A DNA stretch of 64,000 bases from an uncultured virus (IMG/VR IMGVR_UViG_3300028903_000005) (lineage: Duplodnaviria; Heunggongvirae; Uroviricota; Caudoviricetes): IMG/VR virus record IMGVR_UViG_3300028903_000005; one strand, given 5' to 3'. The stretch's first letter is position 1; every line of letters starts with the position of its first letter. Position numbers and translations under genes: made by a program. Shown piece by piece: positions 13,848 to 63,058 of this stretch. The notes under the pieces are model-generated. The model searched no databases. It was not told the DNA's origin and was given only the letters and a program-made list of their open reading frames with translations.

Positions 13848-14148
13848 TTTTGTTATCCCCCGCGACCCCTATTTGTTTGTCTGATATATGTCTGACAACT
13901 GACAGACACTTGGCAGACATAGAACATACATGTCATGATATATGGGAGAAAGGAAAAGGAAAAACGCAAATAAATATAACGATTGAAAACGCAGTTTTGA
14001 TAGATAGATTTGGAAGAATGAATGGATTATGTTAGAATGACCGCCCCCTTCCCTCTTCGGCATCACTTTTTTTATAAAAGGCGTGTGCAAAGTTAACTTA
14101 TTGTTATGCCAAGAATAAATGTATACATACACGCATTAATGCTCTTTT

Positions 14149-15282
14149 TTATACATTACTATGAGAAAAATTAGAATTACTAATTGACCTCCACACTAAA
14201 ACCCCTAATATGACGAAATATAAAACAAAGAACCACACTGTAGAAGAATACATATAATGTTGATTATCATATATCATACCGTATGCAAAAGGATATTCAA
14301 TAAATGATATAACCTGTAAAGCAATATATGATAAAATCCCGATTTTGTCATTACATATAAGTAACGCCGCTATCGGGGCAAACCATACAAGGTATTGTGG
14401 GGATCTGTATGCTGACAAAAATACTACTGCTATCATACAAATGAATATAAGTTGTATCATTAATTGTGGAGACTTCTTACTAATATACATTTTATATAAC
14501 GACGCTGTAATTACACCTACCGTTAATATCTTAAACAACAATGGCAAGAAATCATAAGAACCTATAAATTGTGATATTGTATATTGTAATGTATTACAAT
14601 ATGTGAAATCTGTTACCATGAGGAATTTATCATAACCAATTAACATAAGACCAATAAATATACTTACACCAATACATAGTATAGTGGCAGCATTTGTTTT
14701 GCTTTCTTTTAAATTATACATCCACAGAAAAGGATATGCTATTATAGGGAATATCTTAACAAACATTCCTATAACACTACTAACATATCCTTTTGTTTTA
14801 TCATTATATAAAGTGAATAATATAGATAACATTAATAACATAGTTGGAAACGGATCGAATTTATATAATGTATAATAAACCACTGATATAGACATCGCGC
14901 ATAATAATGCTGCTCGTAATGCTGTTCGTGCAGGATATAATTTTTTTCCAATATAATAAACAGATATACAAATAATTATATCACATATATTCATAAATAT
15001 AACCATAGAATAAAAAAAAGTGTTAAATCCACCACCTATGGTTTGTGATATAAAATACGATAAAAACATTGGTATCAAAGATAATATTGGATAATTAAAA
15101 AGATTGTTCTCATACCACGGGAAATGCCCATTTAAAACATTTTGTGTAGAATTATAATATAAACTCATATCATATGTATCTGATAGAGAACCTACCATAA
15201 GAAGAATAAAAACAATAAGTATAACTTTAGTTACTATAGAAGAAGAAATGATCAAAAATAAGTTTTTGTTATCAGAACGCAT
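14149..15282 (-). CDS. GT-C membrane glycosyltransferase (GT87 / mannosyltransferase-like)
   Basis: Polytopic membrane protein with DMSLYY, FNYP, KFD, KIFP and SPQYLVW motifs. Confidence 0.8.
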   Translation of the reverse strand: MRSDNKNLFLIISSSIVTKVILIVFILLMVGSLSDTYDMSLYYNSTQNVLNGHFPWYENNLFNYPILSLIPMFLSYFISQTIGGGFNTFFYSMVIFMNICDIIICISVYYIGKKLYPARTALRAALLCAMSISVVYYTLYKFDPFPTMLLMLSILFTLYNDKTKGYVSSVIGMFVKIFPIIAYPFLWMYNLKESKTNAATILCIGVSIFIGLMLIGYDKFLMVTDFTYCNTLQYTISQFIGSYDFLPLLFKILTVGVITASLYKMYISKKSPQLMIQLIFICMIAVVFLSAYRSPQYLVWFAPIAALLICNDKIGILSYIALQVISFIEYPFAYGMIYDNQHYMYSSTVWFFVLYFVILGVLVWRSISNSNFSHSNV

Positions 15283-15438
15283 ATAATCATTTCCACCGCT
15301 TATACGCCAACACTCCGCAGAATGCCACTACTTCAAAAATAGTAAATACCACCCCCCCCTTACAAACACAAATGTTATCTTTTATGTTAACGTTTTCGTA
15401 TATAAGGGGGAATTAAAAAGGGATTAAAATTTCCAAAC

Positions 15439-15699
15439 TTAACTAACGTCTTTATCTTCGTCTTTCACGTCTTTCGGTTTCTGCGCGCGCGGGTACAGAC
15501 CCTTGAATTCGTGGGTATCATATGATTCCGGAAGAAGTTTATCTTCAACAATCAGGATAATTAGTTCGTTAAGAACTTCTGCATAAATCGGTGCTTCCGC
15601 TGTGCGCACTGCGCTGTTAAGCGCGCTGATGAGACGTTCTTTCTTCTGTACATACTTCAATACTTTTTCAATTTCGTCCTTTGTATAATTTTCAGTCAT
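15439..15699 (-). CDS. Hypothetical protein
   Basis: ORF overlapping the upstream RHH-like gene. Confidence 0.6.
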   Translation of the reverse strand: MTENYTKDEIEKVLKYVQKKERLISALNSAVRTAEAPIYAEVLNELIILIVEDKLLPESYDTHEFKGLYPRAQKPKDVKDEDKDVS

Positions 15700-15832
15700 A
15701 TTTATCCATTTCCTCTAATCTTTTAGTCTTCTTCTTAATCGCTTCCTCTGCGACAGTCGGCAGATTAAGACCGCGCGCACGTCCCGCTTCGGCGATCTTT
15801 CTATCGATTTTAATAACTGCATCGCGTGTCAT
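15692..15832 (-). CDS. Small ribbon-helix-helix-like DNA-binding protein (46 aa)
   Basis: Translated by hand: MTRDAVIKIDRKIAEAGRARGLNLPTVAEEAIKKK... Resembles CcdA-type RHH proteins. Divergent from the capsid gene. Confidence 0.5.
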   Translation of the reverse strand: MTRDAVIKIDRKIAEAGRARGLNLPTVAEEAIKKKTKRLEEMDKYD

Positions 15833-15935
15833 GATTTACACATATGTTCCATTTGGAAACATATGTATATAATAACAACCAACTACTATATATACCTTTG
15901 TGTTAGACTTAAAAAGCGAGAGAGGTGCATTTTAC

Positions 15936-16274
15936 ATGTTTGAGAAAGTTACGACTTACCTCAAGAGCGCATACACCAAGGGTATGGAGCTGATTCACGA
16001 CTCCGAGGCAATCGGTGAGGCAACCCTCGCCGGTATCGGTATGGTTGTGGGCGGCGCAATCTTCATCGTCATTGGTATCTTCATGGTCGGCACACTTTTC
16101 AACAGTTTGCCAATTTTGACAGGGATCATGAATACTACCATGTCTAACGCACAGAGCAATGTTTCTCTCGCGTTTACCTTCCTTGGTATTGCACTCTTCC
16201 TGTTGGGAGCGATTGTTTTACTTCTGGAGTTCATCCCGGTAATACGCATATTTGTAGGAGGCGAGAGGCAGTAA
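15936..16274 (+). CDS. Putative major capsid protein of spindle-shaped-virus type (SSV1 VP1-like)
   Basis: Hydrophilic pro-region, then G|EATLAGIGMVVGGAIFIVIGIF (compare mature SSV1 VP1 EATNIGVLLGLFIFILIGIV as I recall it). Two hydrophobic helices, a linker with NTT and NVS sequons, a strong GAGAGGTG RBS and its own promoter and terminator. Confidence 0.72.
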   Translation: MFEKVTTYLKSAYTKGMELIHDSEAIGEATLAGIGMVVGGAIFIVIGIFMVGTLFNSLPILTGIMNTTMSNAQSNVSLAFTFLGIALFLLGAIVLLLEFIPVIRIFVGGERQ

Positions 16275-16288
16275 GCCCTTCGTTTTCG

Positions 16289-16313
16289 AAACGGAGACCA
16301 ATTCTCCGTTTTT
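16289..16313 (+). terminator. Hairpin terminator after the capsid gene
   Basis: AAACGGAGA-CCAAT-TCTCCGTTT followed by Ts. Confidence 0.65.
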
Positions 16314-16319
16314 AAAATT

Positions 16320-17186
16320 TTACTTCTTTTTAAAATATTCCTTTGGTAATATTTGTAACCCATATTTTTGGTGATGACTAATATGAGATTCTTTAAACAT
16401 TGTTATACCATTTCCAATGTCCCATAACTCCTTACATTTTAATGCATCTTCTATTGTTTTGATATTATATTCCTGTATTATTATTGATAATGGTTTAATG
16501 TGATGAACTTCTAAATTGTGATTTCCACGAATTCCCGTAAAACAATCTCTAAAGTCATCTCGTTTCATTACATTATATTTCCATATATACATTTCTGGAA
16601 GTTCACGGATTGCTCTTTCCAATTTTGATACTCCCCCTTTCCAGTTATGATTTCGTTCCCCTCTCATATTATTTCGATGTTCCATAGATTTTGGTTTATC
16701 TTTTAATGCTACACTTATTTTATCTCCGGTTCCCTCTGGCATCTTTTGACCTTTGTTCCACGCTTCCTGACCTTTATGAGCAATACTCATTAAATCTCTA
16801 GTATGTTGTGATGCTTTTTTATTTAAATGTGCGAGTCGATTTGCTTCTAATGCTTCTGGACTATGATGTACATTGTTATGTTTTCCTTTATTAGATTCCC
16901 CTATATGTTTCTTATGGTCTTCTGAAAGCGGAATGTTTTTCTTCTTGGCGCTCATCAAATCTTTAGATGATTGTTTATGTGGAATTCCCAAATTCCAAGG
17001 AGTTCTTCCCTTCATAGATTTACTTAAATTTTCACAATGTTCTTTAGTAAAAGGTGCTTTGGGTTTATTCTTTTGCGATGCACTCATTTTGTCGCGTGAT
17101 GCTTGTGAAGGATGCCTATCGGTATGCCATTCACGATTTTTACGCAACCATTCCTCACGCTTTGATGGGTCTTTTGGTGGTGGCAT
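16320..17186 (-). CDS. NUMOD3-repeat HNH homing endonuclease
   Basis: Repeated NUMOD3 motifs, NHNWKGG, and LEVHHIKP...NGITM...H. Probable start MPPPKDP. Confidence 0.85.
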   Translation of the reverse strand: MPPPKDPSKREEWLRKNREWHTDRHPSQASRDKMSASQKNKPKAPFTKEHCENLSKSMKGRTPWNLGIPHKQSSKDLMSAKKKNIPLSEDHKKHIGESNKGKHNNVHHSPEALEANRLAHLNKKASQHTRDLMSIAHKGQEAWNKGQKMPEGTGDKISVALKDKPKSMEHRNNMRGERNHNWKGGVSKLERAIRELPEMYIWKYNVMKRDDFRDCFTGIRGNHNLEVHHIKPLSIIIQEYNIKTIEDALKCKELWDIGNGITMFKESHISHHQKYGLQILPKEYFKKK

Positions 17187-17188
17187 TT

Positions 17189-17623
17189 TTACTCTTTGAA
17201 TTTTGTAATTATAGCCCCATATCCACATTTATTACATTTTGCAGCAGGGGTATATTTTCCATCAACACTCTTTTTTGATCCATTTCTTTTTATATTTTTT
17301 GATCCACACTTTGGGCACTTCATATCTTCCGATATGTGTTCTATATGCTTTCCATACATTGGGTTTTTATCCCCCATTTTAGATTTGCTAATATTCTCAC
17401 AATGTTCTTTCGAACGCGGGGGTTTTGATTTGCCTTTTAAAGAATCGCTCTGTTTTCTTTTTGTTTCTTCCGATGCTGTCATTCCCTTATTCCAAGGTTC
17501 AATGCCTTTGTGCGATTCACTCATTTTGGCTGTGGTTTCTTTTGATGGGTATTTATTGATGTGAGATTGTTTTTGGCGTTCTAACCAAATTGCGTATTTT
17601 TCTGGATCTTTTGGTGCAACCAT
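17189..17623 (-). CDS. NUMOD3-repeat DNA-binding protein with C-terminal Zn ribbon
   Basis: NUMOD3 motifs (SEETKRKQSDSLKG, KNPMYGK) and CPKCG...CNKCG. Confidence 0.75.
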   Translation of the reverse strand: MVAPKDPEKYAIWLERQKQSHINKYPSKETTAKMSESHKGIEPWNKGMTASEETKRKQSDSLKGKSKPPRSKEHCENISKSKMGDKNPMYGKHIEHISEDMKCPKCGSKNIKRNGSKKSVDGKYTPAAKCNKCGYGAIITKFKE

Positions 17624-18250
17624 ATTTAGTCCCCGCGCGGTTTTGTTTTCGTCATATCCAGTCTTTCTAGAAAACAACTTCTTCCCAATGCTTCAATACA
17701 TTCAACTTCACACAATTCTTCAAATGGGCAATCAACATCTTTAAATGCAGGAGAATTGTTTGCAAGATCAAAAATGATAAAGAATGCCTTTTTAAGTTCA
17801 TCTTTAGAAACAGGTTTTATTTTAGACATATTTTTACTCCTTTCAACCAATAATCATATTTTTACACTTTGGACACATGTAACCAATAGGCATCCATGTT
17901 CGTATACCATTCTTTTCTACGCGAATATATAACCGTTTCATTTTGCCATGCGACGGTTCATCGCTGGTCTGTTTTGAATTGCAGATCATATAATATGGTA
18001 TACACTATAAGTATTTAAATGTATCGGTTTATGTGGTAGAAACTTAAAAAGGGTGTTATAGTAATTAGAAAATTTTATTCTCCCTCGTGCCCTCAACCGG
18101 GTCGCGCGTAAACCAATAACAAATAATTTCTCTCATAGAAGTTACCGAGTGAGGTTCATTTCTCTCATGACGGATATTACAATCGTATCCAGTCAATCTA
18201 CACTTTCTGTTATTGTATCGTGTGCATTGGCGGATGAATTTCATATAATA

Positions 18251-18472
18251 TTACACTTCCCTCAAAAACTCCTCATACTCATCTTTAGAAAAACCGTCAC
18301 TAATAACAGATCCATCCCAAGCAATTATTAAACCATATCTTAAGTTCCCCATTTCGTAAATATCTGCTACTTTACCAATAGACCCGAGCGGGATCTGGTA
18401 GAATGGGATTTTGGTAATAACGGTTCCACCGAGTTTGGATTTTGCCTCTTGCAGGGTGAAGTAGGTGGACAA
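18251..18472 (-). CDS. Small hypothetical protein (possible SH3-like barrel)
   Basis: 73 aa, beta-rich, with IPLGSIGKV. Confidence 0.5.
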   Translation of the reverse strand: MSTYFTLQEAKSKLGGTVITKIPFYQIPLGSIGKVADIYEMGNLRYGLIIAWDGSVISDGFSKDEYEEFLREV

Positions 18473-18791
18473 AATTAATACTCCTCCGGTTCGTAATGTG
18501 TGGTGCAGATGGAAAATGTGTTATTAAATTTTCCACTTAATAAACAACGAGCAATCAAACTCGGTTCGGGTTCTCTATCTTTATGCTTACACGCCCCGCA
18601 ACAACGCGCGCGGTAAGATTGGATCATCATGATTGTCATAATATTAGTATGTGTTCTAATAATATAAATATTTCTACAAAACATTTATAACTAAATAATT
18701 ACCATTAATATAGATTTTTAAACAACACAAACATTTATAAACTATAAGTATGTATATATTATATAAATTTAAAATTTTAGGGTGAACAATT

Positions 18792-19184
18792 TTGGCGGTT
18801 GCAGAAACTTTTACATATTCAACAACGAATTCCACCCCAGAAGCTGTGTGGATGTTAATGGCATTGATAGCAGTATCTTTCTTTATAATCGCGTTTTCCC
18901 ACAAACTACGAGATGAAGATGGTTCTATATCAACGGTGCGTGTAGCATTCTCGTTATTCGGCAGTGTTATTTGTGGCATTGTTGCTTATCTGTCGTTAGT
19001 TATAGATGTGAATACGGGATCGCAGACCCACGCGCTGTATCAATCTCCCGTGGTTGCAATAGTGTTTGTAATATTTAGTATAATCTTATTCGCTAATTTT
19101 GTCTATTCTATAATTGCGCCCGAAATGTTAAAACCGAGTAAAGATGATTACCATATGAGACCAGATGGGGTGCAGAAGAAATGA
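18792..19184 (+). CDS. Membrane protein (3 TM helices), putative virion component
   Basis: TTG start after GGGTGA. Homologous to the C-terminus of the next ORF. Confidence 0.75.
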   Translation: MAVAETFTYSTTNSTPEAVWMLMALIAVSFFIIAFSHKLRDEDGSISTVRVAFSLFGSVICGIVAYLSLVIDVNTGSQTHALYQSPVVAIVFVIFSIILFANFVYSIIAPEMLKPSKDDYHMRPDGVQKK

Positions 19185-20179
19185 AGAAGATAATAATAGG
19201 ATTGGTTGTTTTTTGTTTGTTAGTGGGTGGTGTTTCCGCACTTCTTCCACCAGTTGCACCCCCAAATATCCCTATAACCGGGGATGTTAATTTCTTCTTT
19301 TGGAATGACTCTAGCGATTTTGGAACTACATATAATAAGCTTGCTACATATCCCCAGTTGCAGGACGAAGTTATTTATTCTGCAACTGTATCTCAATCAA
19401 CTGGCGAAAAAACAATTGCTTCATTCATAAGCGAACCATTTCCAACAGGAAAAATTCTGGGACCCGGTCTAACACGATATAGAATGTATCTTAATACTTC
19501 AAGCGATGTAGGTATAACAACGTTTAATTTTATACCATATAATGTATCTCCATCTGGTATAGAAACCAGAATGTTTTTTGGAGTTCCACAAACTGTTGAT
19601 ATCAATACACAAGTATCATCTGAATATTTAGTTTCTTACGCGCGAAGAAATTATACATATTTCCTACCGGGTGAAAGGCTTCTCATAAGAGCAAATCTTT
19701 CAACCTCAAGTGTTGTTAGCAGAACTGGTTATATAAGTGTTGCTGGTACAACTGAAGCCAGTATGGTTCAAATCGGGTATTGGATGGATACACCCAACGA
19801 AAGTTACGCCTACTCACCTTCCGGTGCAACGCCATTGACCCAATGGATAGTTGTCGCTCTGACCGCAATAGCATTATTTGTATGCGCGTTTTATTTGCGG
19901 TTGCGAAATGAAGATGGGGAAATCTCGAAGGAACGTATAGTATTTTCAATAGTATCCACCGTCGTGTGTGGAATAGCAGCATATTTATCATTGGAGATTA
20001 TTATACCGAGTGGGGGATTGGCGACAAGTGTTGTATATCAAGAACCTGTAATAGCAATATTATTTATAATGGCAAGTATTATATCCTTTGCAAACTTTAT
20101 ATATTGCATCACACAAAAAGATATGTTGAAACCGGAGAAGAAAGATTATAAAAATGATGGAGAGGGGGAGAGGAGATAA
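19181..20179 (+). CDS. Signal-peptide protein with a beta-rich ectodomain and 3 C-terminal TM helices
   Basis: N-terminal signal MKKIIIGLVVFCLLVGGVSA and several N-glycosylation sequons. Confidence 0.8.
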   Translation: MKKIIIGLVVFCLLVGGVSALLPPVAPPNIPITGDVNFFFWNDSSDFGTTYNKLATYPQLQDEVIYSATVSQSTGEKTIASFISEPFPTGKILGPGLTRYRMYLNTSSDVGITTFNFIPYNVSPSGIETRMFFGVPQTVDINTQVSSEYLVSYARRNYTYFLPGERLLIRANLSTSSVVSRTGYISVAGTTEASMVQIGYWMDTPNESYAYSPSGATPLTQWIVVALTAIALFVCAFYLRLRNEDGEISKERIVFSIVSTVVCGIAAYLSLEIIIPSGGLATSVVYQEPVIAILFIMASIISFANFIYCITQKDMLKPEKKDYKNDGEGERR

Positions 20180-20481
20180 TGCACGTCAGTAGTTTATTTT
20201 TTTTAGTTGTTGTAGTCACGGTATGTTTATTTGGCGGTATAATGGCTGCTGGAACCTATCAGGCAAACGCGCCGACCAGTCAACCAGATAGTTTGGGGAA
20301 TATGCCTTCGCAGTCAACAAATACGACCGCTGGAATGATCGGAAACGTAACTGCTTTCGAGCAGGAAGGATCGGGATGGATGGTGTTACTAATCGCGGTG
20401 ATTATAGTAATATGTGTTATAATCGGAGGAATGGTAATGTTGCGACAAAGCAAGTTGGGTGGGAATAAGTATAGGACTTGA
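20179..20481 (+). CDS. Two-TM membrane protein, possible minor capsid protein
   Basis: Helix-linker-helix layout with NTT and NVT sequons. Confidence 0.6.
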   Translation: MHVSSLFFLVVVVTVCLFGGIMAAGTYQANAPTSQPDSLGNMPSQSTNTTAGMIGNVTAFEQEGSGWMVLLIAVIIVICVIIGGMVMLRQSKLGGNKYRT

Positions 20482-20485
20482 TATT

Positions 20486-20776
20486 ATGAAAAGACTTGTA
20501 ATAGGATTAATGTTGGTCTGTTTGTTAGTGGGAAGCGCAAGCGCGTGGGTGATAGATGATAAAGAAAACAGAGTTGCGGGAACCGTAGACTTTTATATTG
20601 ATGGAACGGGGGTTTTAAATGTAACGAGTGGGCCGGTGATAAACTTCAACTGGTACCAGAGCGGGGATATGATAAAAGCGAATTATCTGTTCTATAGCGT
20701 CGATGTGTATTATAATTCTGATAAGGATGAGTTGTATAGTCCTTCGGTTGGGAATGTGACGTTGAAAAGAAATTAG
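20486..20776 (+). CDS. Secreted small beta-rich protein
   Basis: Signal peptide MKRLVIGLMLVCLLVGSASA. Confidence 0.65.
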   Translation: MKRLVIGLMLVCLLVGSASAWVIDDKENRVAGTVDFYIDGTGVLNVTSGPVINFNWYQSGDMIKANYLFYSVDVYYNSDKDELYSPSVGNVTLKRN

Positions 20777-21047
20777 AATTCCGGATAAACCATCCGAACA
20801 TTATTCATTTTTTCGTGATACTCGCGCATAGTGTCGGAACACTTCTTCGCGTGTTTGTTCAGAGACCCGTACACTTCGTTCATCGATTGGGTTGTTTTCT
20901 TGTACATTTTTGTTTCCTCGTTTTGTTTGGGACTTCGGTTGTCCCTAAACATAATGTGCGATATTAGTATTTATAACTTTGGAATACGCGTTCTAACATA
21001 TATAATCTACACAAACCCTTTTATAGAATGAACCACTATGCTTATTC

Positions 21048-21290
21048 ATGGTCATATCTATTTTTACTAAAGAGGAAGAAACCACAATGCGATTCCAACT
21101 TATTTTTGGTCTAATCGGACTCGCCGTGGCTATGGTTTCATTTTGGGCCGCTTCACAATTTGACACCGTGGATTTGAGATATGGTTTCCTTTTCGCGTGC
21201 GTATTAGTTGCGATTACTTGGTTAAAAGAGTCATTGTTCATGCTAGCAGATGTCGCAATTTCGATTATGAAAAACCGAGAGAATCTATAA
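21048..21290 (+). CDS. Two-TM membrane protein
   Basis: Two hydrophobic segments. Confidence 0.55.
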   Translation: MVISIFTKEEETTMRFQLIFGLIGLAVAMVSFWAASQFDTVDLRYGFLFACVLVAITWLKESLFMLADVAISIMKNRENL

Positions 21291-21333
21291 ACCAAAACAT
21301 TTTTATACAATAACACAACAACATTTATATAAT

Positions 21334-24442: not shown

Positions 24443-24449
24443 AAAAGAA

Positions 24450-25120: not shown

Positions 25121-25122
25121 TG

Positions 25123-25434: not shown

Positions 25435-25462
25435 TTCACTTCACCATTTGTTTTGCGTGGCA

Positions 25463-26233: not shown

Positions 26234-26239
26234 GTTATT

Positions 26240-39687: not shown

Positions 39688-40287
39688 TTATATTCCATTA
39701 CTTTTCTGCATCAAAGTCGTCAATTCTCCCATTGAAGGGGTAGCATAGTGTTCTTGAACCGTACTTACTTTATCTCCTATCAGTGCGGCAACTTGTTCTA
39801 TTGTCCATCCTTCTTCTTGTTTAAGCTTAATACACGTTGATCTCATTGCATGAATTGGTATTGGTGTTGGAATACCAGCCTTCTTACACAAATCATTGAA
39901 GATATTATACGCGGTCTTGCTACTCATTGATCCCCCTTCGCGCACGTTCTGTCTAGCAGGGAACAAATATTTTTGTCCTTTATCAGTGTGTTCTTTGATA
40001 TATAACGACAATTCGTGTGCAAGTTCGTTGGTGATAGGAACAGTTTTAACTCTATTACCCTTTTTCTTTTCATGATATGACAGCATGGGGGCACTTGGAT
40101 TCAGATCAATATTGGATATTTCAACGCGCACGAGATCATCCCTTCGCAATCCGAGTGTAAACCCTATCATAATAAGCATTTTATCTTCATACGAGTTTGC
40201 AGCCATCAATACGGCATTTGCTTGTTTACGATTAAGCGCCTTTTCCCCAGTGGTATAATGTTTCTGAAATTCAAAAGCCATGATCAT
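39688..40287 (-). CDS. Tyrosine recombinase/integrase, catalytic domain only
   Basis: GLRRDDL (R), EKKKG (K), HAMR (HxxR) and IGDK...EHY (Y) motifs. Confidence 0.88.
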   Translation of the reverse strand: MIMAFEFQKHYTTGEKALNRKQANAVLMAANSYEDKMLIMIGFTLGLRRDDLVRVEISNIDLNPSAPMLSYHEKKKGNRVKTVPITNELAHELSLYIKEHTDKGQKYLFPARQNVREGGSMSSKTAYNIFNDLCKKAGIPTPIPIHAMRSTCIKLKQEEGWTIEQVAALIGDKVSTVQEHYATPSMGELTTLMQKSNGI

Positions 40288-47071: not shown

Positions 47072-47404
47072 ATGAGTTTTTCTGATACTAATAAAAGTAA
47101 CTCATCTCCCATGTCAGTAGGCACCCCAAAGGATAAATACGTTGATTTTTTCTTTAATCAATTCGGGTGTTACACTAGCATATTGAGGTCGGATGTTAAT
47201 GAGAAAGAATTGGATCGGGCAACAGCAGCACTTATTGCTATCTGCCCCGACAATAAGATACGAGAAGAACTGTTCAAAAAATACACGGATAAGAAAAAAG
47301 AGTCTGGTATAGTAACCGCATCCGCTGGACTAGCTGGTAACTTCATGTCATATATATCTGACACGCTGGAGTTTACCGAAAAAAGTTATGCATCGGTGTT
47401 CTAA
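47072..47404 (+). CDS. Hypothetical protein upstream of the ATPase
   Basis: TATA element upstream; TAATG coupling to the ATPase. Confidence 0.7.
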   Translation: MSFSDTNKSNSSPMSVGTPKDKYVDFFFNQFGCYTSILRSDVNEKELDRATAALIAICPDNKIREELFKKYTDKKKESGIVTASAGLAGNFMSYISDTLEFTEKSYASVF

Positions 47405-48381
47405 TGGATCTCACCAAACCAATTGTATTGGAAAGCGGGATTGTGGATCTGGGATGTTCTAACAGGTCTGCCATAATCAGACTTGCTAATTGGGCACAAG
47501 ATCTTATTGACAATAAAAAACCAATCCCTAGAAGTCCATTCTGCAAATGGGCGGCAGAGCGTGTTGCTTCTAAAGATAAACAAGATTTGACTATCTTTAT
47601 ATCAGCACGCAAGGGCAAAGGCAAATCTTATACAGCACTCTATCTTGCTTCGCGCATTGCTGATGAGATTGCGTTGTTACTTGGTGGGAAACAATCCGAT
47701 TACTTTACAATAGAGAACTGTGCACTTCTCATGGATTCATCAAAGATTACCAATCTATTGTCAACTAAAGGCAAATATCAAGTTTTGATTATTGACGATG
47801 CCGGTGTTGGAGCAAACAATAGGGAGTTTTTATCTCGTGGTAATATTAACTTTAATAAGATTATGATGACATGCAGAACCAAACGGTGGGTTGTAATATT
47901 CACATCGGTTCTTAAAAGTCACGTTGATTTAAATATTCGCGAAATGAGCGATGTGTTAATTAATATTTATAAATCGTTTCATGTGGGTGGATTTAACATT
48001 TGTAAGGCAAAAAATTCGGACGTTGTAGAATTACCAAATAACAAAAACGTGACAATTTCTAAAAGATTATCGTTTGATAAAGATAATAAAAAAATTGATT
48101 TCTGGGTCTCGTTTGCACCAGATAGAGAACTTGCTGAAGAATACGACCGTCAAAGAGATGTAGCAGCAGATAAGATTTTGCAAGAATCCAACGAACAATT
48201 AAATGAAAAACAATCAGGGAAAACAGAAACAAAACAACAGGAATTATTCACAAAATATTATGACACTGTAAAGAAACTCTTCGAAACCGAACCTGATATA
48301 AAATCCAGAGAAGTGCTTCGGAGATGCCCGGGGTTAACATTAACATATTTGGATAAAATGAGAGCACAAGGAGGATTCTGA
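47404..48381 (+). CDS. P-loop ATPase (Zot/packaging-type, as in spindle-shaped viruses)
   Basis: Walker A ARKGKGKS, Walker B LIIDDAG, CRTKR and VDLNIRE motifs. Confidence 0.8.
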   Translation: MDLTKPIVLESGIVDLGCSNRSAIIRLANWAQDLIDNKKPIPRSPFCKWAAERVASKDKQDLTIFISARKGKGKSYTALYLASRIADEIALLLGGKQSDYFTIENCALLMDSSKITNLLSTKGKYQVLIIDDAGVGANNREFLSRGNINFNKIMMTCRTKRWVVIFTSVLKSHVDLNIREMSDVLINIYKSFHVGGFNICKAKNSDVVELPNNKNVTISKRLSFDKDNKKIDFWVSFAPDRELAEEYDRQRDVAADKILQESNEQLNEKQSGKTETKQQELFTKYYDTVKKLFETEPDIKSREVLRRCPGLTLTYLDKMRAQGGF

Positions 48382-48875
48382 TGACAGATAAAGAAGCAGA
48401 ATTATTAAAAATAAGTGAAGAACTTGTTGAAATACAAAAAGATGGGAAAGATCATTCGACAACAGAATTTTTTAAAATTCTGGAAAAAATTAAAATGCTA
48501 ATCGATCCGAATTTCATGGCTATACCGGAAGATTTGAAAAGAAGTATAGGTATAGCCACTGTAAGTGCGGTTGCTGCACCGGATCCCGAACAAAGAGTCG
48601 ATATAGTGAGGGCTGGATTGGCCCTTTTAAGAACTGCTGTTTTGATGGCGGGGGGGCCACAAACGCGTTTTTATTTAGAAAAAATCAAAGCACATGAAAA
48701 CGCAATATCTACTGAATTAAAAAGAATTGCACCAGCAGAAGGAGAAGCGGAACGTGTTACACTATTTGATACGGTGTGGCGCGCAACCTCGTTTCTTGTG
48801 TTTATGAGTTTTAATGGATATGGAGAAATTAATTCAACGGGTTTTTCGTGGCCCGGGAGTGGTGATTCTAAATGA
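48381..48875 (+). CDS. Helical hypothetical protein
   Basis: Coupled to the ATPase gene. Confidence 0.7.
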   Translation: MTDKEAELLKISEELVEIQKDGKDHSTTEFFKILEKIKMLIDPNFMAIPEDLKRSIGIATVSAVAAPDPEQRVDIVRAGLALLRTAVLMAGGPQTRFYLEKIKAHENAISTELKRIAPAEGEAERVTLFDTVWRATSFLVFMSFNGYGEINSTGFSWPGSGDSK

Positions 48876-49453
48876 CGATGCGGGATTTGTTCAAAAATAC
48901 CGATGATTATGAAGGCGAATACAATAACCAAGAACAAGAGCAACCACAATTGACAGATGGTGGTGAGGGGGAACAAGCGCAAGATGGGGATACTTACGAT
49001 GATGGGATGGGTGGTGTATCAAATGTTGCACCGGGTAATGAAATGGCTACCATGCCACACGATTTTCGCTATGTAGATAGGTTCATTAAAGTAAAGGGAA
49101 TCCCAAAAGATAACGGAGATGGAACACGCGCGGGGTATCTACTCAACCCCGATTTCGCTGAAAACTTTGTCATAAATTTTTTAAGCTCCCAAGACCAAAA
49201 ACACATCTGGAGAAGGTTCGCCGACGTTCAAGACGAGGCGAGTGGAGAGGGGAATGAACAATTAACAAAATCTAGCAGTGATTTGTTAGCATTGCGGGTT
49301 TTAATGAAAAGAAGTTCAACAGAAAACGATTTGAATTTGAATGAAAGAACCGCTCATATTGAGTCTAGAAGTAGAAGTTCAATTAAAACCACTTCTAATG
49401 TATCTAGGGCACAAAATTCTGGAAGTTGGCTTTCGCGCCTTTTTGGAAAATAA
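48872..49453 (+). CDS. Hypothetical protein with acidic N-terminus and amphipathic C-terminus (WLSRLFGK)
   Basis: Coupled ORF. Confidence 0.7.
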   Translation: MTMRDLFKNTDDYEGEYNNQEQEQPQLTDGGEGEQAQDGDTYDDGMGGVSNVAPGNEMATMPHDFRYVDRFIKVKGIPKDNGDGTRAGYLLNPDFAENFVINFLSSQDQKHIWRRFADVQDEASGEGNEQLTKSSSDLLALRVLMKRSSTENDLNLNERTAHIESRSRSSIKTTSNVSRAQNSGSWLSRLFGK

Positions 49454-56621: not shown

Positions 56622-59600
56622 TTACTTTCTCTTTTTCTTCTGTGGCAACGACGAAGGCAATGATATTGATCTAATGCCCGTGGTTGAAGATGACTTTTTA
56701 GTAATACCAATGTTGGGCATACTAAATGATGGCATTTGTATAGATGCTACTTTCTGTTGTACTGCACGCTGTGCAGGAACCACTTTAACGGGCTTTTGTT
56801 GCACTTTAGTTGGTTTCTGTAATGAGAATGATGGTAATGATGAACCCGGGCCGCGTGTTACGTTGGAACCCCTTCTCAAAGCCTTTGTTACTGCTACTGC
56901 TGCCAAGACTGGGGTAAAGGGATATTCGAATTTTTCAACGTGTTTTTTGTATCTCTTTTTCTTATCCCTTATTCCGCCACTCCCGTACAAATTACCACCT
57001 GTGGGGAGAATCGGAATTGGCGATCCGGGACTCGGGGGTTTTGGTGTTGATGGTGGCAAACTGGTTGGAATGGAGGGAATAGATGGGGGAGAAATCTTTG
57101 TGCTTGAAGGTGTAGATGGTATATTAGGCATCGATGGGCTTCCCTCTTTCGGTGGAGATGGTGGTGAAAATATAGAAATTGATGGAACTATTGGAGAAAC
57201 TATTTTTGATACGGACGGTAGACTTATTTCTGAAACCGATGGTATAGAAGCAACAGATTTTAAAGAACCCAATGATGAAGAAAACCCCTTTGGTATTTCA
57301 GAAGATTCTTTTGAAACTGATTTGCTAATAGATTTTTCAATCGGTGATATATAACCACTCATATCTTTAGATAAACTCATCTCTTTGGATGGAGCAGATA
57401 ACATTTCTGATGTAGCAATAACACTTTTTAATTTAGAATCGCTCGGTTTCAAACTACCAACACCCATTAATGGAGAATATTTTGGAATGGCGGTTGTAGA
57501 TAAAGAACCAATGATTGATGCGCCAGACATCACGGGTATTCTTACAGATTTTACACCGGTTGATGAAGGCACAGACAAATCGATGTTAAATTTTCCACCA
57601 ACATAGTTTTGTCTTACTTTTGTAGATGCATCCTTCCCCCATAAATCTAACCATTGTTCTAAATACACATCTGCTTTTGCTGCCTTTGCTCTAGTTAATG
57701 GATTGGAAGATTTGCTCATTAATTCTATATTGCCCTTTTCTCCAATATAATAATCTCCTATATCTTTCATACGTCCTTCAAATCTAGGAGCAATTTTTCC
57801 AGTAACAGAAAATACTTCTGGCCCACCTTCATATCCTTTGCCAGTAACGGTTCTCGGTTCTGGAGTAATTTCCATTGCACCAGATGCCTTTCTCCCAATT
57901 TGTTCAGCATATGGCATTACTTCTAATCCTTCAGTAGTACTTACATATTTCTGTGGTTTCATACCAAGACCGAAATAACCCGAAGATGATCTAAATGGAC
58001 TTGTTTCTTGCTTTAGTAATTTGTTGACGGTTGGATTTTCATTGTGTATATCAAATAATTTTCCACTTCCGTCTGACATTTCTACTGTGCCATCTTTAAC
58101 ATAAACCACCTTTTTACCAGCGGCTTTATTTATAGCAGATGTAACATCTTGTGCATATGAATCCCCCATTGATTGTAAAGACGATGTTTTGGATGTTGTT
58201 AGTTTGCTCTTTATTCCTTCTATCAACGACAATTTTCCCGGTTGCCCTGCTTCAGAAGGTATCATAACATCAAGATCATTTGGATTGCGAAGCAATGTTG
58301 TAACTCCACGTTCTATTCCAACCGCCTTCTGCCCAGCGGAACCATATAATTTTGCGCCATAATCAAGAGAAGTTTGTAAAATTGCTTCGGTAACTTCTGC
58401 CGAATTCGGGAATTTTCTTGCTTTTACAACTTCTCCTATCGCTGTAGATGCTTGATCATACTTTGCTCCGGAACCAGAAGTGATTTCATGGGTTTTATAC
58501 ATCAAATCTAATTTTGGAGATTCTTCGGGTGCTATATATTTTTTACCAATGGCAACTTCCAATGGAGATTCCATCGCATACGTGGAACCCTCGGTTTTAA
58601 ATTTAAACATCTCTGCTGTTGGTTTTGGAATCCCAATATACACATTTTTTAGTGTGGATACGGCTTTAACAGCACCATATTTTAAATTCGGTAATAATTG
58701 TGGAGAAGTCGAAACATCTAATATAGCCCACTTCTCACCAGATGGTGAAACAACATTTTCTACATTTTTTAAATATAGTTTCGTTTCTGGTGCAACCACA
58801 TATTCTTCTTCTAATCCCAATCCTTTCCACGGCTTACCAGCAGCGGCACGAAGACCCGGATATAATTTACCCGGCGGTAATGTTGCTGCAACATCAGCAA
58901 AATTCCTTCCATATGCTCCACTGCTCTTTATTTTACCCACGGCGCTAGCAAATTCCGGCGTGATTTCCGGAGTTGTTCTTAATCGCAATGCTACTTTTGT
59001 TCCGGTTTCACCAGCATACTGTTTAAGTATTGTACCCGGATCCCCAAAGAATAATGCACCTTCTTTTCCACCCTTTCCAACAACAACCTCTCCTGTGGTC
59101 AAGAGTTGATTTACAAATGCGTTTTCAGGAGTAACATGATAGAAATCCGATACTCCACCTTTAGCAAGAGTTGTATATCTTTGGGCTGCTTGACTAGCAT
59201 CCGCAAAAGTATTCATCTTCGTAGTAAATGATATATCTTTTGCACTACCTTTTAAAAGGTTTGAACCAATAATAACATCGGTGGGAGAAGTTGTTTTTCC
59301 GCCTACACCAACCAAAGAAGATGTTAATTGTTCAATCTGTTTATCAGCACCAGATAATTTCGAAACGACAAGTGAAGTATATTTAGCAGTTGGTGTTTCC
59401 ATTCCTTTTGACGAAATTATTTCCGCGCGTTGCAATCCGATTCTATAAGGCTGTGCTTCATATAATTTTCCCCCACCCTTAAACAATAAATATTGACCAA
59501 CCAATGAACCCGCAAACTTTGCTGGATTTGTTGTTGCTGATTGATACATCCCACCTGCTTGCATTGCAAGACCTGCTGTTGCCAATCCAGCAAATGTTGA

Positions 59601-61568
59601 TGGATTACGCAATATTGTTTCTCCACCGACCAAAGCAGATTGCCCAAGTTGTGCTACCATTTCCGGGGTTGATGTTAAACCTGATATTACACCCCCGGGA
59701 ATACCCCACCCAGATACAGCAGTTTCTATAGGTGCTTGAATATTAGCAGAATACCATTTTCCAACATCTCCAATATTAGAACCAAGTCCATACGTTAACA
59801 ATTTTGTTTGATCTACATTTCCCGTTAATGGAGATGCAGATTTGACATAATGGGATTCTGCTGTATCTATTTGCCCCTGCAATGTAGAAATTTTTCCATA
59901 TTGCGTATCCAAATCTGTTTTCTGCGAGGTGAGGTTTTCATATTCTTTTTGCGTCGGTATAGCACTTTGTTTATTAAAAATATCCACGTTTTTACTATAA
60001 GTATCAATTGAAGATTGTAAATTTTTTTGTTGTGATATTAAACTATCATATCCCTCTTGTGTTGGATTTGCTTTATAAGATTCGAGATTTTTATTATATA
60101 TTTCCGATTTTAATTCTATATCTTTTTGTTGTGTCAACAAATTATCATAACCTTCTTGCATCTTATTTGCATTTATATTATATGAATTCATATTTTTATT
60201 ATATGCAACCAAAGATTTTTCATAATCTGGCATAAGAGCATTAATTTTTTCTGTGTTTATAGAAGAAACCTTTTGATAATCATAATAAGATTCTGTTGCT
60301 GCACCACCCTGTGATATTCCAGACAAAACATCACTAGCAACAGGCAATTTTGTTTCTGTTCCCAATTTGTACACAGATGATAAAACAGGAACTTCTCCCG
60401 ATGGAACTTTTGAACCAATATCATAAATATTACTTAATATTGGAGTGGCTTTTATAACATTTGAAACATCAGTGAATGTGGATGGGATATTTGTGCTTCC
60501 AATAGTAGCATTTTGTGTTCCGGTCGGTCCCCCCTTATTAAAAACAACCGCGCTGCCCGGAACCACATATAATCCACCCGCCATCGGTTGACTTTTCATC
60601 GTAACATCGGGGCCAGTACCAGAAAATTGTGCAGGCATTGTAGTAACAACCGACCGTGGAACATTAGTTTCCCACGACGCCATTACGTTACCAACACTTT
60701 CCGGCGTAATACTCTTCACACCCGTCCCACCATACAAAGCACCATACGGCCCTTCGATACCTTCCGCCGCTTGCAAAGCCGCCAATCCCGGCATAAAATT
60801 AACATTTTCGTTTTTACCTAATGCGGTATTCCATTGATGCTGTTGAACACCCATCGTTCCACCGGGTAAATATCTGGACATCTCCCCGCTAACAGGAGGA
60901 AACACATCGGATCTGGTTATAGGAGCACCTTTCAACAACTCCACGGCAAGATCCGCTTGGTATTCATAAGGATTCGCCGCCACTGGTCTTCCCGTTTCTT
61001 TGGCCATATAATGATACTGGCTAGCTGCTTCTATCGGTTCTTGAATTGATTTAGTTAACTCATTTTCATAAAAACTTTTTGCCCTACTATCGGTTGCTGC
61101 TTGTCGTTGTTCTTCTAATGTATACCTCACAGCATCGTCATATGAACCGAATGGTTTGTTTGGTTGATTCATTAATTCTTTTGCGCGCGTTTGTGTTGCA
61201 GCATCTCCCAATTCGGTTGAAGCATAATAACCGGGGCGCGTTTCCACAGCCCTATACATTGCTGGAGGCAACGCGGGGTGAACGTTAGTATCATAATCAT
61301 ATTCTTGTGCTGCCGAAGGAGGAGTTGCCGTTTGAGCAGCAGCGATTCGTGCTACACTCGGATCTACAACACCTCCTGTTTTTCCAACCAATTGTGCAAT
61401 TTCGGCAGCCGTGTTACCGGACATTGCGGGTTGTGGCGTGTCAACAGTGTGCGCGTTTGCTGGTGGACTACCACCACCCTCGTAAGTAATTTGACCGGTA
61501 TATGCAGATTGATAACCTATGATATTCCCACCAGAATCCCTAACAGCATATGAAGCATAAGATCCCAT
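56622..61568 (-). CDS. Giant multidomain protein: coiled coil, hydrophobic helices, putative ADP-ribosyltransferase, putative nucleotidyltransferase, S/P-rich tail
   Basis: 1648-aa ORF. ART-like FYHVT...ALFFG...EEEYVV; Pol-beta NTase-like LYGS...NDLDV...LFDIH. Confidence 0.85.
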   Translation of the reverse strand: MGSYASYAVRDSGGNIIGYQSAYTGQITYEGGGSPPANAHTVDTPQPAMSGNTAAEIAQLVGKTGGVVDPSVARIAAAQTATPPSAAQEYDYDTNVHPALPPAMYRAVETRPGYYASTELGDAATQTRAKELMNQPNKPFGSYDDAVRYTLEEQRQAATDSRAKSFYENELTKSIQEPIEAASQYHYMAKETGRPVAANPYEYQADLAVELLKGAPITRSDVFPPVSGEMSRYLPGGTMGVQQHQWNTALGKNENVNFMPGLAALQAAEGIEGPYGALYGGTGVKSITPESVGNVMASWETNVPRSVVTTMPAQFSGTGPDVTMKSQPMAGGLYVVPGSAVVFNKGGPTGTQNATIGSTNIPSTFTDVSNVIKATPILSNIYDIGSKVPSGEVPVLSSVYKLGTETKLPVASDVLSGISQGGAATESYYDYQKVSSINTEKINALMPDYEKSLVAYNKNMNSYNINANKMQEGYDNLLTQQKDIELKSEIYNKNLESYKANPTQEGYDSLISQQKNLQSSIDTYSKNVDIFNKQSAIPTQKEYENLTSQKTDLDTQYGKISTLQGQIDTAESHYVKSASPLTGNVDQTKLLTYGLGSNIGDVGKWYSANIQAPIETAVSGWGIPGGVISGLTSTPEMVAQLGQSALVGGETILRNPSTFAGLATAGLAMQAGGMYQSATTNPAKFAGSLVGQYLLFKGGGKLYEAQPYRIGLQRAEIISSKGMETPTAKYTSLVVSKLSGADKQIEQLTSSLVGVGGKTTSPTDVIIGSNLLKGSAKDISFTTKMNTFADASQAAQRYTTLAKGGVSDFYHVTPENAFVNQLLTTGEVVVGKGGKEGALFFGDPGTILKQYAGETGTKVALRLRTTPEITPEFASAVGKIKSSGAYGRNFADVAATLPPGKLYPGLRAAAGKPWKGLGLEEEYVVAPETKLYLKNVENVVSPSGEKWAILDVSTSPQLLPNLKYGAVKAVSTLKNVYIGIPKPTAEMFKFKTEGSTYAMESPLEVAIGKKYIAPEESPKLDLMYKTHEITSGSGAKYDQASTAIGEVVKARKFPNSAEVTEAILQTSLDYGAKLYGSAGQKAVGIERGVTTLLRNPNDLDVMIPSEAGQPGKLSLIEGIKSKLTTSKTSSLQSMGDSYAQDVTSAINKAAGKKVVYVKDGTVEMSDGSGKLFDIHNENPTVNKLLKQETSPFRSSSGYFGLGMKPQKYVSTTEGLEVMPYAEQIGRKASGAMEITPEPRTVTGKGYEGGPEVFSVTGKIAPRFEGRMKDIGDYYIGEKGNIELMSKSSNPLTRAKAAKADVYLEQWLDLWGKDASTKVRQNYVGGKFNIDLSVPSSTGVKSVRIPVMSGASIIGSLSTTAIPKYSPLMGVGSLKPSDSKLKSVIATSEMLSAPSKEMSLSKDMSGYISPIEKSISKSVSKESSEIPKGFSSSLGSLKSVASIPSVSEISLPSVSKIVSPIVPSISIFSPPSPPKEGSPSMPNIPSTPSSTKISPPSIPSIPTSLPPSTPKPPSPGSPIPILPTGGNLYGSGGIRDKKKRYKKHVEKFEYPFTPVLAAVAVTKALRRGSNVTRGPGSSLPSFSLQKPTKVQQKPVKVVPAQRAVQQKVASIQMPSFSMPNIGITKKSSSTTGIRSISLPSSLPQKKKRK

Positions 61569-61804: not shown

Positions 61805-63058
61805 TTAACTATATGGTTTCACTAACACGGGGGAGGGAGAACTATACCCCGTCTTATTTGCCCACACATAATAAAAGTGATCTGAAGTCAATCCTGTAAG
61901 TACTGCAAGACCGCGTGTATTACTTGTTGCAGTAGATATAACCGATGTGGTTGTGTCTTGCGCGTAATACGTTGCACTTGAAATAGGGTTTCCATATAAA
62001 CTATCACGCACAATGCCAACAATACGAGTATTACTATATTGTGCCGTTGGGATTAATGGTATTGTTAAATTGATTGGGCCACTTGCTAACGGAGTAAATG
62101 TATTAACATCTGATGCATATCCGCTTTTATTAGTCATAATTGTTAGTGGGACACCATAAGTTAAAGATGCACTATCCATATTAAAGGAGCCGTCTGCTGC
62201 CGATGTTGCAGAATACACAATTCCGGATTGTGTAGCATTTATAACAGCACCCGATATTGCAGAAGACGTATATGCATCAACAACATATCCCATAGGTATA
62301 ACCGATGTTGAAGAAGAATCATATGTGATTTCTACGTAACCATATGCACCGTTCCCCCCGGGGCCGCCAAGAGCGAAGTGACCAGCAACCGGGCTACCAG
62401 CGCCCCCGCCTCCTCCTCCAGCACCATTACCAATTCCACCGGGTGAACCATATGATGTACGTAAATTATCCGATGTTGTTCCAGTAATACTATTCAATCC
62501 ACTATATGCAATTTGATAATTACCATAACCATTTGCACCTCTAGAAGAACTCCCCGAACTTAATGTTACAACATACCATCCGCCATCACCGGATGGGTAA
62601 CTATGCCAAGATATATATGGGGCAGCCCCGCCTTCAGCAATATAACCAAATGCAGAAGAATTTCCTCCGGGTTCCCCATAATAATAATATTGAATGCCAT
62701 CTGTTCCCACTAAATATTTACCATCAACCCCTATACCCGGTTTTCCAACTATTATAGAATAAGATTGCCCCGGAGTAACAGGAATATTGCTTTGTGTTAC
62801 GTATGTACCAGCATTGCCACCAGCCCCATTCCCAGATCCAATAAAACCACCAACTTGATTATAAACCCAATAATATCCACCAACCCCCCCGGATCCACCA
62901 CCAATCATTTTTATTGATACAGTGGTCACATCAGAAGGGCATGTCCATATACCATCTTGCGTAAACGAAACTGTTTGTGAAACAGCTAAAGAGGGGGTTA
63001 CTAATAATATTGTTGCTAATAGTAAAACAATATATTTGAAATTCATAATCCAAACCAC
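61805..63058 (-). CDS. Secreted glycine-rich-domain protein with Ig-like (carboxypeptidase-regulatory-like) domains; putative adhesin or tail protein
   Basis: Signal peptide, F...G.WTCP..VT.V....IGGGSGG, VTPGQSY.I.VG, and two G.V.D....I..A...NK.GY repeats. Confidence 0.8.
   Translation of the reverse strand: MVWIMNFKYIVLLLATILLVTPSLAVSQTVSFTQDGIWTCPSDVTTVSIKMIGGGSGGVGGYYWVYNQVGGFIGSGNGAGGNAGTYVTQSNIPVTPGQSYSIIVGKPGIGVDGKYLVGTDGIQYYYYGEPGGNSSAFGYIAEGGAAPYISWHSYPSGDGGWYVVTLSSGSSSRGANGYGNYQIAYSGLNSITGTTSDNLRTSYGSPGGIGNGAGGGGGGAGSPVAGHFALGGPGGNGAYGYVEITYDSSSTSVIPMGYVVDAYTSSAISGAVINATQSGIVYSATSAADGSFNMDSASLTYGVPLTIMTNKSGYASDVNTFTPLASGPINLTIPLIPTAQYSNTRIVGIVRDSLYGNPISSATYYAQDTTTSVISTATSNTRGLAVLTGLTSDHFYYVWANKTGYSSPSPVLVKPYS

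Follow-up and report, generated by a model that had tools for sequence, protein, structure and literature searches.

A two-helix hairpin protein as candidate major virion protein precursor of a very large, possibly spindle-type archaeal virus lineage

Results and discussion

The stretch of DNA analysed here (64,000 nucleotides of the uncultured virus record IMGVR_UViG_3300028903_000005, hereafter the window) contains at 15936..16274 (+) a gene for a protein of 112 amino acids with two hydrophobic segments, the hairpin protein, which is a candidate precursor of a major virion protein. On balance, the gene product is probably a precursor from which the major virion (coat) protein of a very large, broadly spindle-type archaeal virus is made. 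That the protein behaves like a dominant structural protein is supported by the strongest purifying selection and the strongest codon bias among the genes compared and by promoter-like, Shine-Dalgarno and terminator signals of its own. The spindle-type assignment rests on a profile link of the protein family to virus TPV1 and to archaeal proviruses, on an ATPase of the SSV1 B251 type, and on a related, probably complete genome in which no HK97 capsid, portal or terminase gene was detected; a spindle morphology is what we infer from these sequence comparisons. The lineage would be a new, much larger variant of the spindle viruses, about twice the size of any described.

The gene and its conservation

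The longest open reading frame (ORF) at this locus opens at GTG 15900, but the homologous proteins begin with MFEK or MFEN and a Shine-Dalgarno-like GAGAGGTG precedes the ATG at 15936, so that 15936-16274 is the likely gene. An earlier note on this DNA, made from the sequence alone, had described a stand-alone gene with a strong ribosome-binding site, C-ending codon bias and a terminator, and each of these features is borne out. The ribosome-binding site has its GGTG 8 nt upstream of the start codon; a TATA-box-like element and a further A/T-rich element (15865-15875) lie upstream of the gene; and a hairpin running into a T tract follows it (Table 1), although a simple terminator scanner does not include that hairpin in its list. 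Among the 87 window ORFs of at least 80 amino acids, the gene stands first both in G+C content at third codon positions (0.595, against a median of 0.336) and in its proportion of C at two-fold NNY codons (0.655, against a median of 0.28); it ranks third for third-position C.

When 1.84 billion cluster representatives were scanned in full with HMMER, a small family emerged, with only eight clusters at E ≤ 1e-3, seven of them distant (30-38% identity). Its members have in common an Ala immediately preceding helix 1 (Ala25 in the hairpin protein, with F, I or Y as the next residue), Gly40 and Gly47, an N[SA]IP motif after helix 1, an NTT sequon and an AFT-x-LG motif at the start of helix 2, while their N-terminal regions vary in both length and sequence. 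The protein also occurs, at 92-100% identity, at seven IMG/VR loci, none of which is the window; the longest of the contigs concerned have 112,520 bp (G001) and 138,951 bp (G002). Comparison of the window with G002 gave 50 orthologue pairs, of which the hairpin protein shows the highest conservation, with 97.3% identity against a median of about 69%. In another related locus (L003), the gene differs from that of the window at 43 of 336 nucleotides without a single amino acid change, and the DNA of the gene region is 84.6% identical. Replacements among the relatives are few and clustered in residues 1-24, and synonymous divergence is near saturation. The hairpin protein is under extreme purifying selection. 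A tblastn search with it against 50,697 phage records gave no match at E ≤ 10.

Two members of the family depart from this pattern. One distant representative of 86 amino acids (P0012) looks circularly permuted, with a helix-2-like part first and a helix-1-like part second; the family profile matched it in two stretches. The related genome G065 encodes, at L028:1748-2425 and as the second of its two paralogues, a protein of 225 amino acids with a sequon-rich insertion of about 100 residues in the loop between the helices, possibly a decorated capsid subunit or a spike-like variant.

The two hydrophobic helices and the sequons in their linker that the earlier note had read from the sequence are evident from hydropathy (NTT at residue 66, NVS at residue 75). 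A second AlphaFold model places helices at residues 2-19, 26-57 and 67-107 with low confidence (pLDDT 65, pTM 0.44); hydropathy and this model together give the layout of a VP1-type protein, two hydrophobic helices joined by a short loop with sequons. The N-terminal region of 27 residues, which varies among the relatives, ends at the family-wide Ala25 and the clade-specific Gly27|Glu28.

The hallmark ATPase and gene order in relatives

The window encodes an AAA+ ATPase whose family (phrog_5484) also takes in SSV1 B251 (E = 5e-101) and His1 ORF16 (2.8e-62), and the same family is found in G002 (4.8e-06) and in L020 (3.1e-09), a contig titled as a Methanoperedenaceae metagenome-assembled genome that carries paralogues of the hairpin protein as well. 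When the window ATPase was searched by tblastn against the 50,697 phage records, the sole matches were three TPV1 records (3e-5). The ATPase of the window is 31.5% identical to that of G002 (77300-78358), whereas the hairpin proteins of the two are 97% identical, a conspicuous disparity between the two hallmark genes.

The order of genes in L020 is an MCM helicase, an A24 peptidase of 127 amino acids (Pfam 8.3e-10), two tandem paralogues of the hairpin protein, a membrane protein of 108 amino acids, a soluble protein of 146, membrane proteins of 246 and 337, the B251-type ATPase and a protein of 903 amino acids. Five of 284 species genomes of the order to which L020 belongs (Methanosarcinales) carry the family. 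G065 repeats the A24 peptidase (1.4e-08) followed by two paralogues, and three genomes contain a provirus beside an integrase fragment in which the hairpin protein is followed by a membrane protein of about 105 amino acids, a soluble protein of about 160 and a membrane protein of about 232. The soluble protein is common to L020, G065 and the proviruses (E 1e-8 to 3e-11), and TPV1 and PAV1 have the same gene order after their small membrane protein. In the window, the ORF two genes downstream of the ATPase encodes a protein of 193 amino acids that is weakly related to the soluble protein of this module, of about 150 amino acids (Table 1); hidden Markov models of the membrane proteins of about 105 and about 240 amino acids found nothing credible in the window or G002.

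In both L020 and G065 the A24 peptidase gene lies directly upstream of the tandem copies of the hairpin gene, which suggests virus-encoded maturation at the conserved small residue before helix 1. Three of four related virus contigs also have an A24 gene, at a distance from the hairpin gene. In G002 (104419-106550; L013:9419-11550) it overlaps the end of a gene for a secreted protein of 539 amino acids with DUF3821 and Thr/Pro-rich linkers, which could be a further substrate or a partner of the peptidase.

Search for a head-tail module and extent of the genome

As the earlier note had observed, no HK97 capsid, portal or terminase gene is found in the window by Pfam (74 ORFs) or PHROGs (66 ORFs), and the same holds for the related contigs. 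In G002, scans of the 149 ORFs of at least 90 amino acids (93 with Pfam; 148 with PHROGs, a 460-residue ORF being left out) gave no match to head, packaging, portal or terminase families, and their sole 'tail' row is a metallo-beta-lactamase domain. Six-frame searches with Phage_capsid (HK97), Terminase_6N, TerL_ATPase and Phage_portal each found nothing in four contigs; related contigs of 53-139 kb thus contain no head-tail module by these searches. Jelly-roll capsids were covered by the general Pfam and PHROG scans only, which gave no match.

G002 ends in a direct repeat of 146 bp, and G001 is collinear across both of its ends. On the strength of this terminal repeat and of the bridging contig, G002 is probably a complete genome of about 138.8 kb despite a CheckV completeness of 84%. 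Its genes include replication, recombination, glycosyltransferase and sugar-synthesis functions, family B polymerase (PolB), thymidylate synthase (ThyA), asparagine synthase and TnpB, together with very large PKD/glycine-rich surface proteins and the type IV prepilin-like (A24) peptidase. The window encodes the PolB, ribonucleotide reductase (in two ORFs) and tRNA (tRNA-Leu(CAA)) that had been attributed to it, and also Pth2, two N6/N4 methylases (one with an intein), NUMOD3/HNH endonucleases and an integrase. The element is supported as viral-like and archaeal. The observations that the earlier note had named as fatal to its proposal, namely pilin or archaellin matches, a head-tail module and signs of a cellular chromosome, were looked for and none was found.

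Comparison with proteins of known spindle-shaped viruses

The closest likeness is to TPV1, a spindle-shaped virus (available text of PMC12934983 and PMC4158269). Its membrane protein has the same length of 112 amino acids and the same layout of N-terminal polar region, helix, SIP motif and sequon, and helix. Profile-profile alignment of the hairpin family with the TPV1 family (phrog_12443) gave probabilities of 71-75% and E-values of 2.5e-5 to 3.7e-5 over 97-106 columns, the full length. Controls consisted of 20 reversed alignments (maximum score 24.5) and 77 unrelated two-helix ORFs from the same loci (maximum 23.0); the top score against TPV1 (34.4, at 75%) lies above all 20 of the former and all 77 of the latter. 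Proteins of 133 amino acids from the proviruses also scored above every control, both against the hairpin family (52.5%, score 30.4) and against the TPV1 family (28.9). The accepted pair of the His1 family and SSV1 VP1/VP3, run identically, reached 37.5% and a score of 26.6, which both the TPV1 score and the provirus score of the hairpin family exceed. The TPV1 match constitutes moderate, inconclusive evidence at the level of sequence profiles. Pairwise similarity to the TPV1 protein is not significant alone, as 141 of 1000 segment shuffles score as well. TPV1 differs from the window lineage in its genome of 21.6 kb, its hyperthermophilic host and its lack of an annotated A24 peptidase.

The earlier note had proposed membership of the SSV1 VP1 family, and this is not shown, as the profile scores fall within control noise and the GEAT motif is confined to one clade. 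The resemblances are of layout and gene content. VP1 and VP3 of the Fuselloviridae have, like the hairpin protein, a pro-region followed by two hydrophobic helices with sequons between them; the VP1/VP3 pair of SSV1 is paralleled by tandem paralogues in the relatives, and a B251-type ATPase is encoded in the same genome. The G-E-A-T of the hairpin protein (residues 27-30), which the earlier note had emphasized, falls exactly at the processing region of SSV1, whose VP1 precursor contains ...KGEATNIG...IFILIGI...; the motif and its match to VP1 thus stand, but not as a feature of the family. The SSV1 genome of 15,465 bp is about one-ninth the size of that of the window lineage, and the Fuselloviridae differ in their replication module, which in the lineage consists of an RNA-primed-type PolB, a primase-helicase and ribonucleotide reductase. 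VP21 of His1 is likewise a two-helix hairpin with a sequon in the loop, but has 73 amino acids without a long pro-region, and the linear His1 genome of 14.5 kb has a protein-primed PolB, unlike the window lineage.

Several weak leads point in the same direction but were not counted as tests. In the ESM-Atlas, the closest clusters that bear a name are VP1_VP3 and His1_capsid, each at 0.85, below the bar of 0.9; Smith-Waterman scores against SSV1 VP1 and His1 VP21 were reached by 44 and 16, respectively, of 1000 segment-preserving shuffles; and two relatives have phrog_16261, a 'virion structural protein', as their best PHROG row (E = 0.0046 and 0.036).

Bicaudaviruses have genomes of 60-76 kb. 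The statement in the earlier note that genomes of spindle-virus families are all much smaller than the window overlooks an ANME-1 contig of a tepeuvirus, a predicted spindle virus, of 72.6 kb, the largest reported in the available text of PMC9894754. Because spindle viruses of that size are already known, the window lineage is better described as a new, much larger variant. The ANME-1 spindle viruses are described in that text as having hydrophobic helical capsid proteins, RNA-primed PolB, thymidylate synthase and asparagine synthase, with genomes split into structural and enzymatic parts (PMC9894754). G002 shares PolB, ThyA and asparagine synthase with them, a likeness drawn by description only; it differs in its size of about 139 kb and in its A24 peptidase, of which the text available from the same source makes no mention.

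Evidence that weighs against a spindle-type coat protein

A number of results count against the proposed coat protein of a spindle-type virus. No row for PF06281 (VP1_VP3) or PF25665 (His1_capsid) appeared at E ≤ 10 in ten family members, and four further relatives were likewise without a significant match; in a positive control, PF06281 recovered SSV1 VP1 (2.4e-19) and VP3 (1.8e-38). The PHROG families of VP1 reached family members at E 6-8 only. Profile-profile alignment gave a probability of 1-3% and scores of 16-20 against SSV1 VP1 (3% and 19.8 with the profile of the family) and 4.5-11.5% with scores of 18.5-21.9 against His1 VP21, all within the range of the reversed controls. The best of these, 21.9 and 19.8, are below the control maxima and are thus noise; the accepted His1-SSV1 pair itself reached only 26.6 against a control maximum of 24.5, so that the method barely sees a known relationship. 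PAV1 ORF121 matched none of five profiles, so that even among accepted spindle capsid proteins the method fails to connect one family with another. The TPV1 protein to which the hairpin family is linked (AFA44827.1) is labelled only 'membrane protein' in PHROGs, and its capsid role is unconfirmed in the literature examined.

Structural comparison was no more favourable. The first structure model of the hairpin protein is one long helix. Fold searches with the second, low-confidence model gave best E-values of 0.78 (PDB) and 0.81 (BFVD) and were uninformative, because a helical hairpin at a pLDDT of 65 is not discriminating; phmmer and profile searches of PDB sequences returned chance rows only and did not match VP1 of SSV19 (7xdi), which is also not among the Foldseek rows shown. 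GEAT is conserved in the window's own clade but not outside it in the family alignment, where the conserved residue before helix 1 is Ala25, two residues upstream of Gly27. The candidate cleavage sites before helix 1, mostly N-A|F in the family and E-A|I or I-G|E here, depart from the canonical class III signal motif of archaea, position -2 being mostly Asn. The hairpin gene and the ATPase gene are far apart in the window, and the A24 gene is outside it. Pfam and PHROGs can miss capsid, portal or terminase genes that have diverged far enough, many ORFs are without annotation, and CheckV rates the completeness of the related contigs at 52-84%.

Alternative interpretations

The hairpin protein might instead be a non-capsid membrane protein of the virus, serving egress or lysis in the manner of a holin, superinfection exclusion or membrane remodelling, in a genome whose true capsid genes are too divergent to be recognized. 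Viruses often encode small two-helix proteins, no family is assigned to most ORFs of the window and G002, and comparison with proven spindle capsid proteins gave nothing above noise. There are also rows of holin type below threshold (phrog_689, E 0.046-0.19; XhlA, best E 0.0012; Phage_holin_3_6), but no holin family matched significantly, the best PHROG rows being those just given, and no lysin family was found by Pfam beside the gene. Holins and exclusion proteins evolve fast, whereas the hairpin protein is the most conserved of the 50 compared, with few replacements and the strongest codon bias. Tandem paralogues beside a dedicated peptidase, and synteny with the structural block of TPV1 and PAV1, fit a structural protein better than a holin, and the want of any capsid, portal or terminase signal across the 139 kb of G002 disfavours an undetected capsid. 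We consider this alternative unlikely, though serious.

An improbable alternative is that the protein is the membrane matrix protein of some other lipid-containing virion, whether pleomorphic and vesicle-like, bacilliform or ovoid. Shape is unreadable from sequence, and known spindle capsids hold far less DNA than about 139 kb. Bacilliform viruses of the Thermococcales also use hydrophobic alpha-helical hairpin capsid proteins, according to the available text of a 2026 preprint (PMC12934983), and a putative ATPase is listed for the pleolipovirus His2 in the part available of a 2014 review (PMC4124505). Against this, SSV1 and His1 share the ATPase family with the window, and spindle-shaped TPV1 is the only virus of recorded morphology that either hallmark, the hairpin protein or the ATPase, reached above noise, and both did so, in a comparison outside which the pleolipovirus proteins lay.

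Least probable of all is a pilin-like subunit, either of an A24-substrate filament or, like VirB2, TraA or CedA1, of the conjugative pilus of a large conjugative element: conjugative pilins have a long leader and two hydrophobic helices, a layout that the hairpin protein resembles, an A24 peptidase gene adjoins the genes of some relatives and is present elsewhere in three of four related contigs (this association being the only pilin-like property found), and 'core encoded pilin' appears as a weak PHROG row (E = 3.1) for one relative, but no pilin, archaellin or VirB2/TraA family matched at E ≤ 10 in ten members, no VirB4/TraC, VirD4/TraG or pilus-assembly ATPase family appeared in the scans of the window, G002 and L020, the genes present are of viral kind (homing endonucleases, inteins, PolB, ribonucleotide reductase and B251-type ATPase), and type IV pilins have a globular domain after their one helix where the hairpin protein, by hydropathy and the low-confidence model, has a second membrane helix.

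Proposed maturation and significance

If the hairpin protein is the coat protein precursor of a spindle-type virus, it would insert into the host membrane as a hairpin, and its variable N-terminal 25-27 residues or so would be removed at a conserved small residue (Ala25, or Gly27 in the clade of the window), the likely cutting enzyme being the prepilin-peptidase-like A24 aspartic protease encoded by the virus lineage. The loop would be N-glycosylated at NTT and NVS; two GT-C-like membrane proteins of the window score below the Pfam cut-off, and G002 has many glycosyltransferases. Mature hairpins of about 85 residues would then pack side by side into a flexible, lemon-shaped shell around a genome of about 139 kb. 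The proposed cleavage is the least secure part of this mechanism. The full proposition, that a virus lineage of archaea in methanogenic or anoxic, engineered or subsurface settings packages about 139 kb in a shell of such hairpins and brings its own truncated A24 protease for the capsid precursor, is put forward tentatively and seems to us doubtful as a whole.

At issue are the way in which an expandable shell is assembled from a simple hairpin protein and the amount of DNA that it can enclose. New here would be a genome of about 139 kb, a capsid protein family outside existing profiles and a virus-encoded A24 peptidase. A hairpin protein and a B251-type ATPase in a genome of this size without detectable icosahedral or head-tail machinery would raise the size limit of the architecture about two-fold. 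The A24 gene beside tandem hairpin genes is a testable candidate for a capsid-maturing protease. We know of no protease that matures VP1 of SSV1. The A24 interpretation might be extended to that virus, since the residue at position -1 of K-G|E-A-T is small, as these peptidases require; if it is true, the enzyme long sought for the maturation of VP1-like proteins would be an A24-type peptidase, supplied by the host in the case of small spindle viruses. For the isolation of virions from enrichments of sludge or landfill material, the genome is a concrete target.

Host and habitat

Parts of the region occur in 24 runs from 17 studies of activated sludge, wastewater, landfill, groundwater, sediment and wetland; four of these runs were aligned to the region and proved to consist of contigs, which give no ranking of genes, and two clear RNA runs gave no cover over 14003-18004 and have no bearing on expression. 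Contigs of spindle viruses have been reported from methanogenic digesters (PMC9796341). The methanogen-related host suggested by the earlier note, or a methanotroph-related one, is plausible in view of the relative titled Methanoperedenaceae and the family members in its order. For the window's own clade, a putative anaerobic archaeal host fits these habitats and the relatives in Methanosarcinales. Short matches of 30-119 nt to window positions 14001-34000, the part covered by the search, were found in 14 of the 284 genomes; their interpretation as CRISPR spacers was rejected, as there were no repeat arrays at the two loci checked. Two related viral contigs of 87,830 and 138,951 bp (L018 and L019) are also found in public bins of genomes; the title of one bin names a Patescibacteria bacterium and that of the other an unclassified archaeon, so that the viral contigs were probably mis-binned.

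Other features of the window

Features read from the window are collected in Table 1. Two copies of the palindromic octamer ACATATGT between the divergent 46-residue ORF and the TATA-like elements are, from their sequence and position, a candidate operator. The membrane protein of 377 amino acids encoded beside the hairpin gene is possibly a glycosyltransferase, to judge from its weak likeness. Contigs of one run join position 13856 to 15353, skipping 1,496 bases, so that some relatives are without its gene. Directly downstream of the hairpin gene lie two NUMOD3/HNH homing-endonuclease-like genes (16320-17677, -); because 16274-18590 of the window is unaligned in the related locus L002, this block is variable. 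The protein of 1648 amino acids, whose counterpart in G002 has 1554, is a candidate virion fibre or adhesin by its size and neighbourhood, and the secreted protein of 417 amino acids is a candidate surface or receptor-binding protein.

Table 1. Features of the hairpin protein gene and of other loci in the window
Feature	Position	Strand	Basis and remarks
Palindromic octamer ACATATGT, two copies	15840-15847, 15859-15866		Between the 46-residue ORF and the TATA-like elements
TATA-box-like TATATATA	15887..15894	+	42-49 nt upstream of ATG; read from sequence, putative promoter
Shine-Dalgarno-like GAGAGGTG	15920..15927	+	GGTG 8 nt before ATG; read from sequence
Hairpin protein, N-terminal amphipathic pro-region (residues 1-27)	15936..16016	+	Alignments; model helix 2-19; putative cleavage
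Hairpin protein, hydrophobic helix 1 (about residues 28-55)	16017..16100	+	Invariant Gly40 and Gly47; alignment, hydropathy, model
Hairpin protein, connecting segment (about residues 56-79)	16101..16172	+	N[SA]IP-type motif (here NSLP); sequons NTT 16131-16139 and NVS 16158-16166
Hairpin protein, hydrophobic helix 2 (about residues 80-104)	16173..16247	+	Preceded by conserved AFT-x-LG; alignment, hydropathy, model
Terminator-like hairpin into T tract	16288..16312	+	RNA fold of 10 bp, -12.2 kcal/mol, z -3.75; 0/200 shuffles as stable
46-residue ORF resembling a ribbon-helix-helix regulator	15692..15832	-	Divergent from the hairpin gene; sequence only, assignment by eye
377-residue polytopic membrane protein, weakly PMT_2/GT-C-like	14149..15282	-	Pfam E 0.0015, below cut-off
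AAA+ ATPase, SSV1 B251/His1 ORF16 family	47404..48381	+	phrog_5484 E 1.5e-12, profile positions 23-236 of 239
193-residue protein	48872..49453	+	Weakly related to soluble protein of the module: window E 0.86, G002 orthologue E 1.9e-4
Tyrosine recombinase (integrase)	39688..40287	-	Pfam 3.1e-18; phrog_216 2.8e-26
1648-residue protein	56622..61568	-	Without family matches
417-residue secreted protein	61805..63058	-	Gly_rich_2 and CarboxypepD_reg (4e-11, 1.6e-06); phrog_863 E 3.9e-05

The largest unannotated soluble protein (449 amino acids) gave no usable Atlas feature match and no PDB match; a 'portal' row for it (TM 0.21, model pTM 0.15) was rejected as noise, all structure rows having TM ≤ 0.21. 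An ORF of 510 amino acids in G002 likewise gave no PDB match.

Inteins and homing elements are frequent in the lineage. A DNA methylase at 1563-4136 (-) in the window shows intein and LAGLIDADG signals, and a B12-radical SAM enzyme of G002 (L008:13306-15798) has an intein and HNH. PolB has 1123 amino acids in G002 (L009:13759-17130) and 793 in the window. The large subunit of ribonucleotide reductase is split into an N-terminal part of 237 amino acids and a C-terminal part of 444 amino acids with a TSCPD domain, separated by about 260 bp, and the split is present in both genomes (window 4684-6018 and 6277-6990 (-); G002 23922-25373 and 25567-26280).

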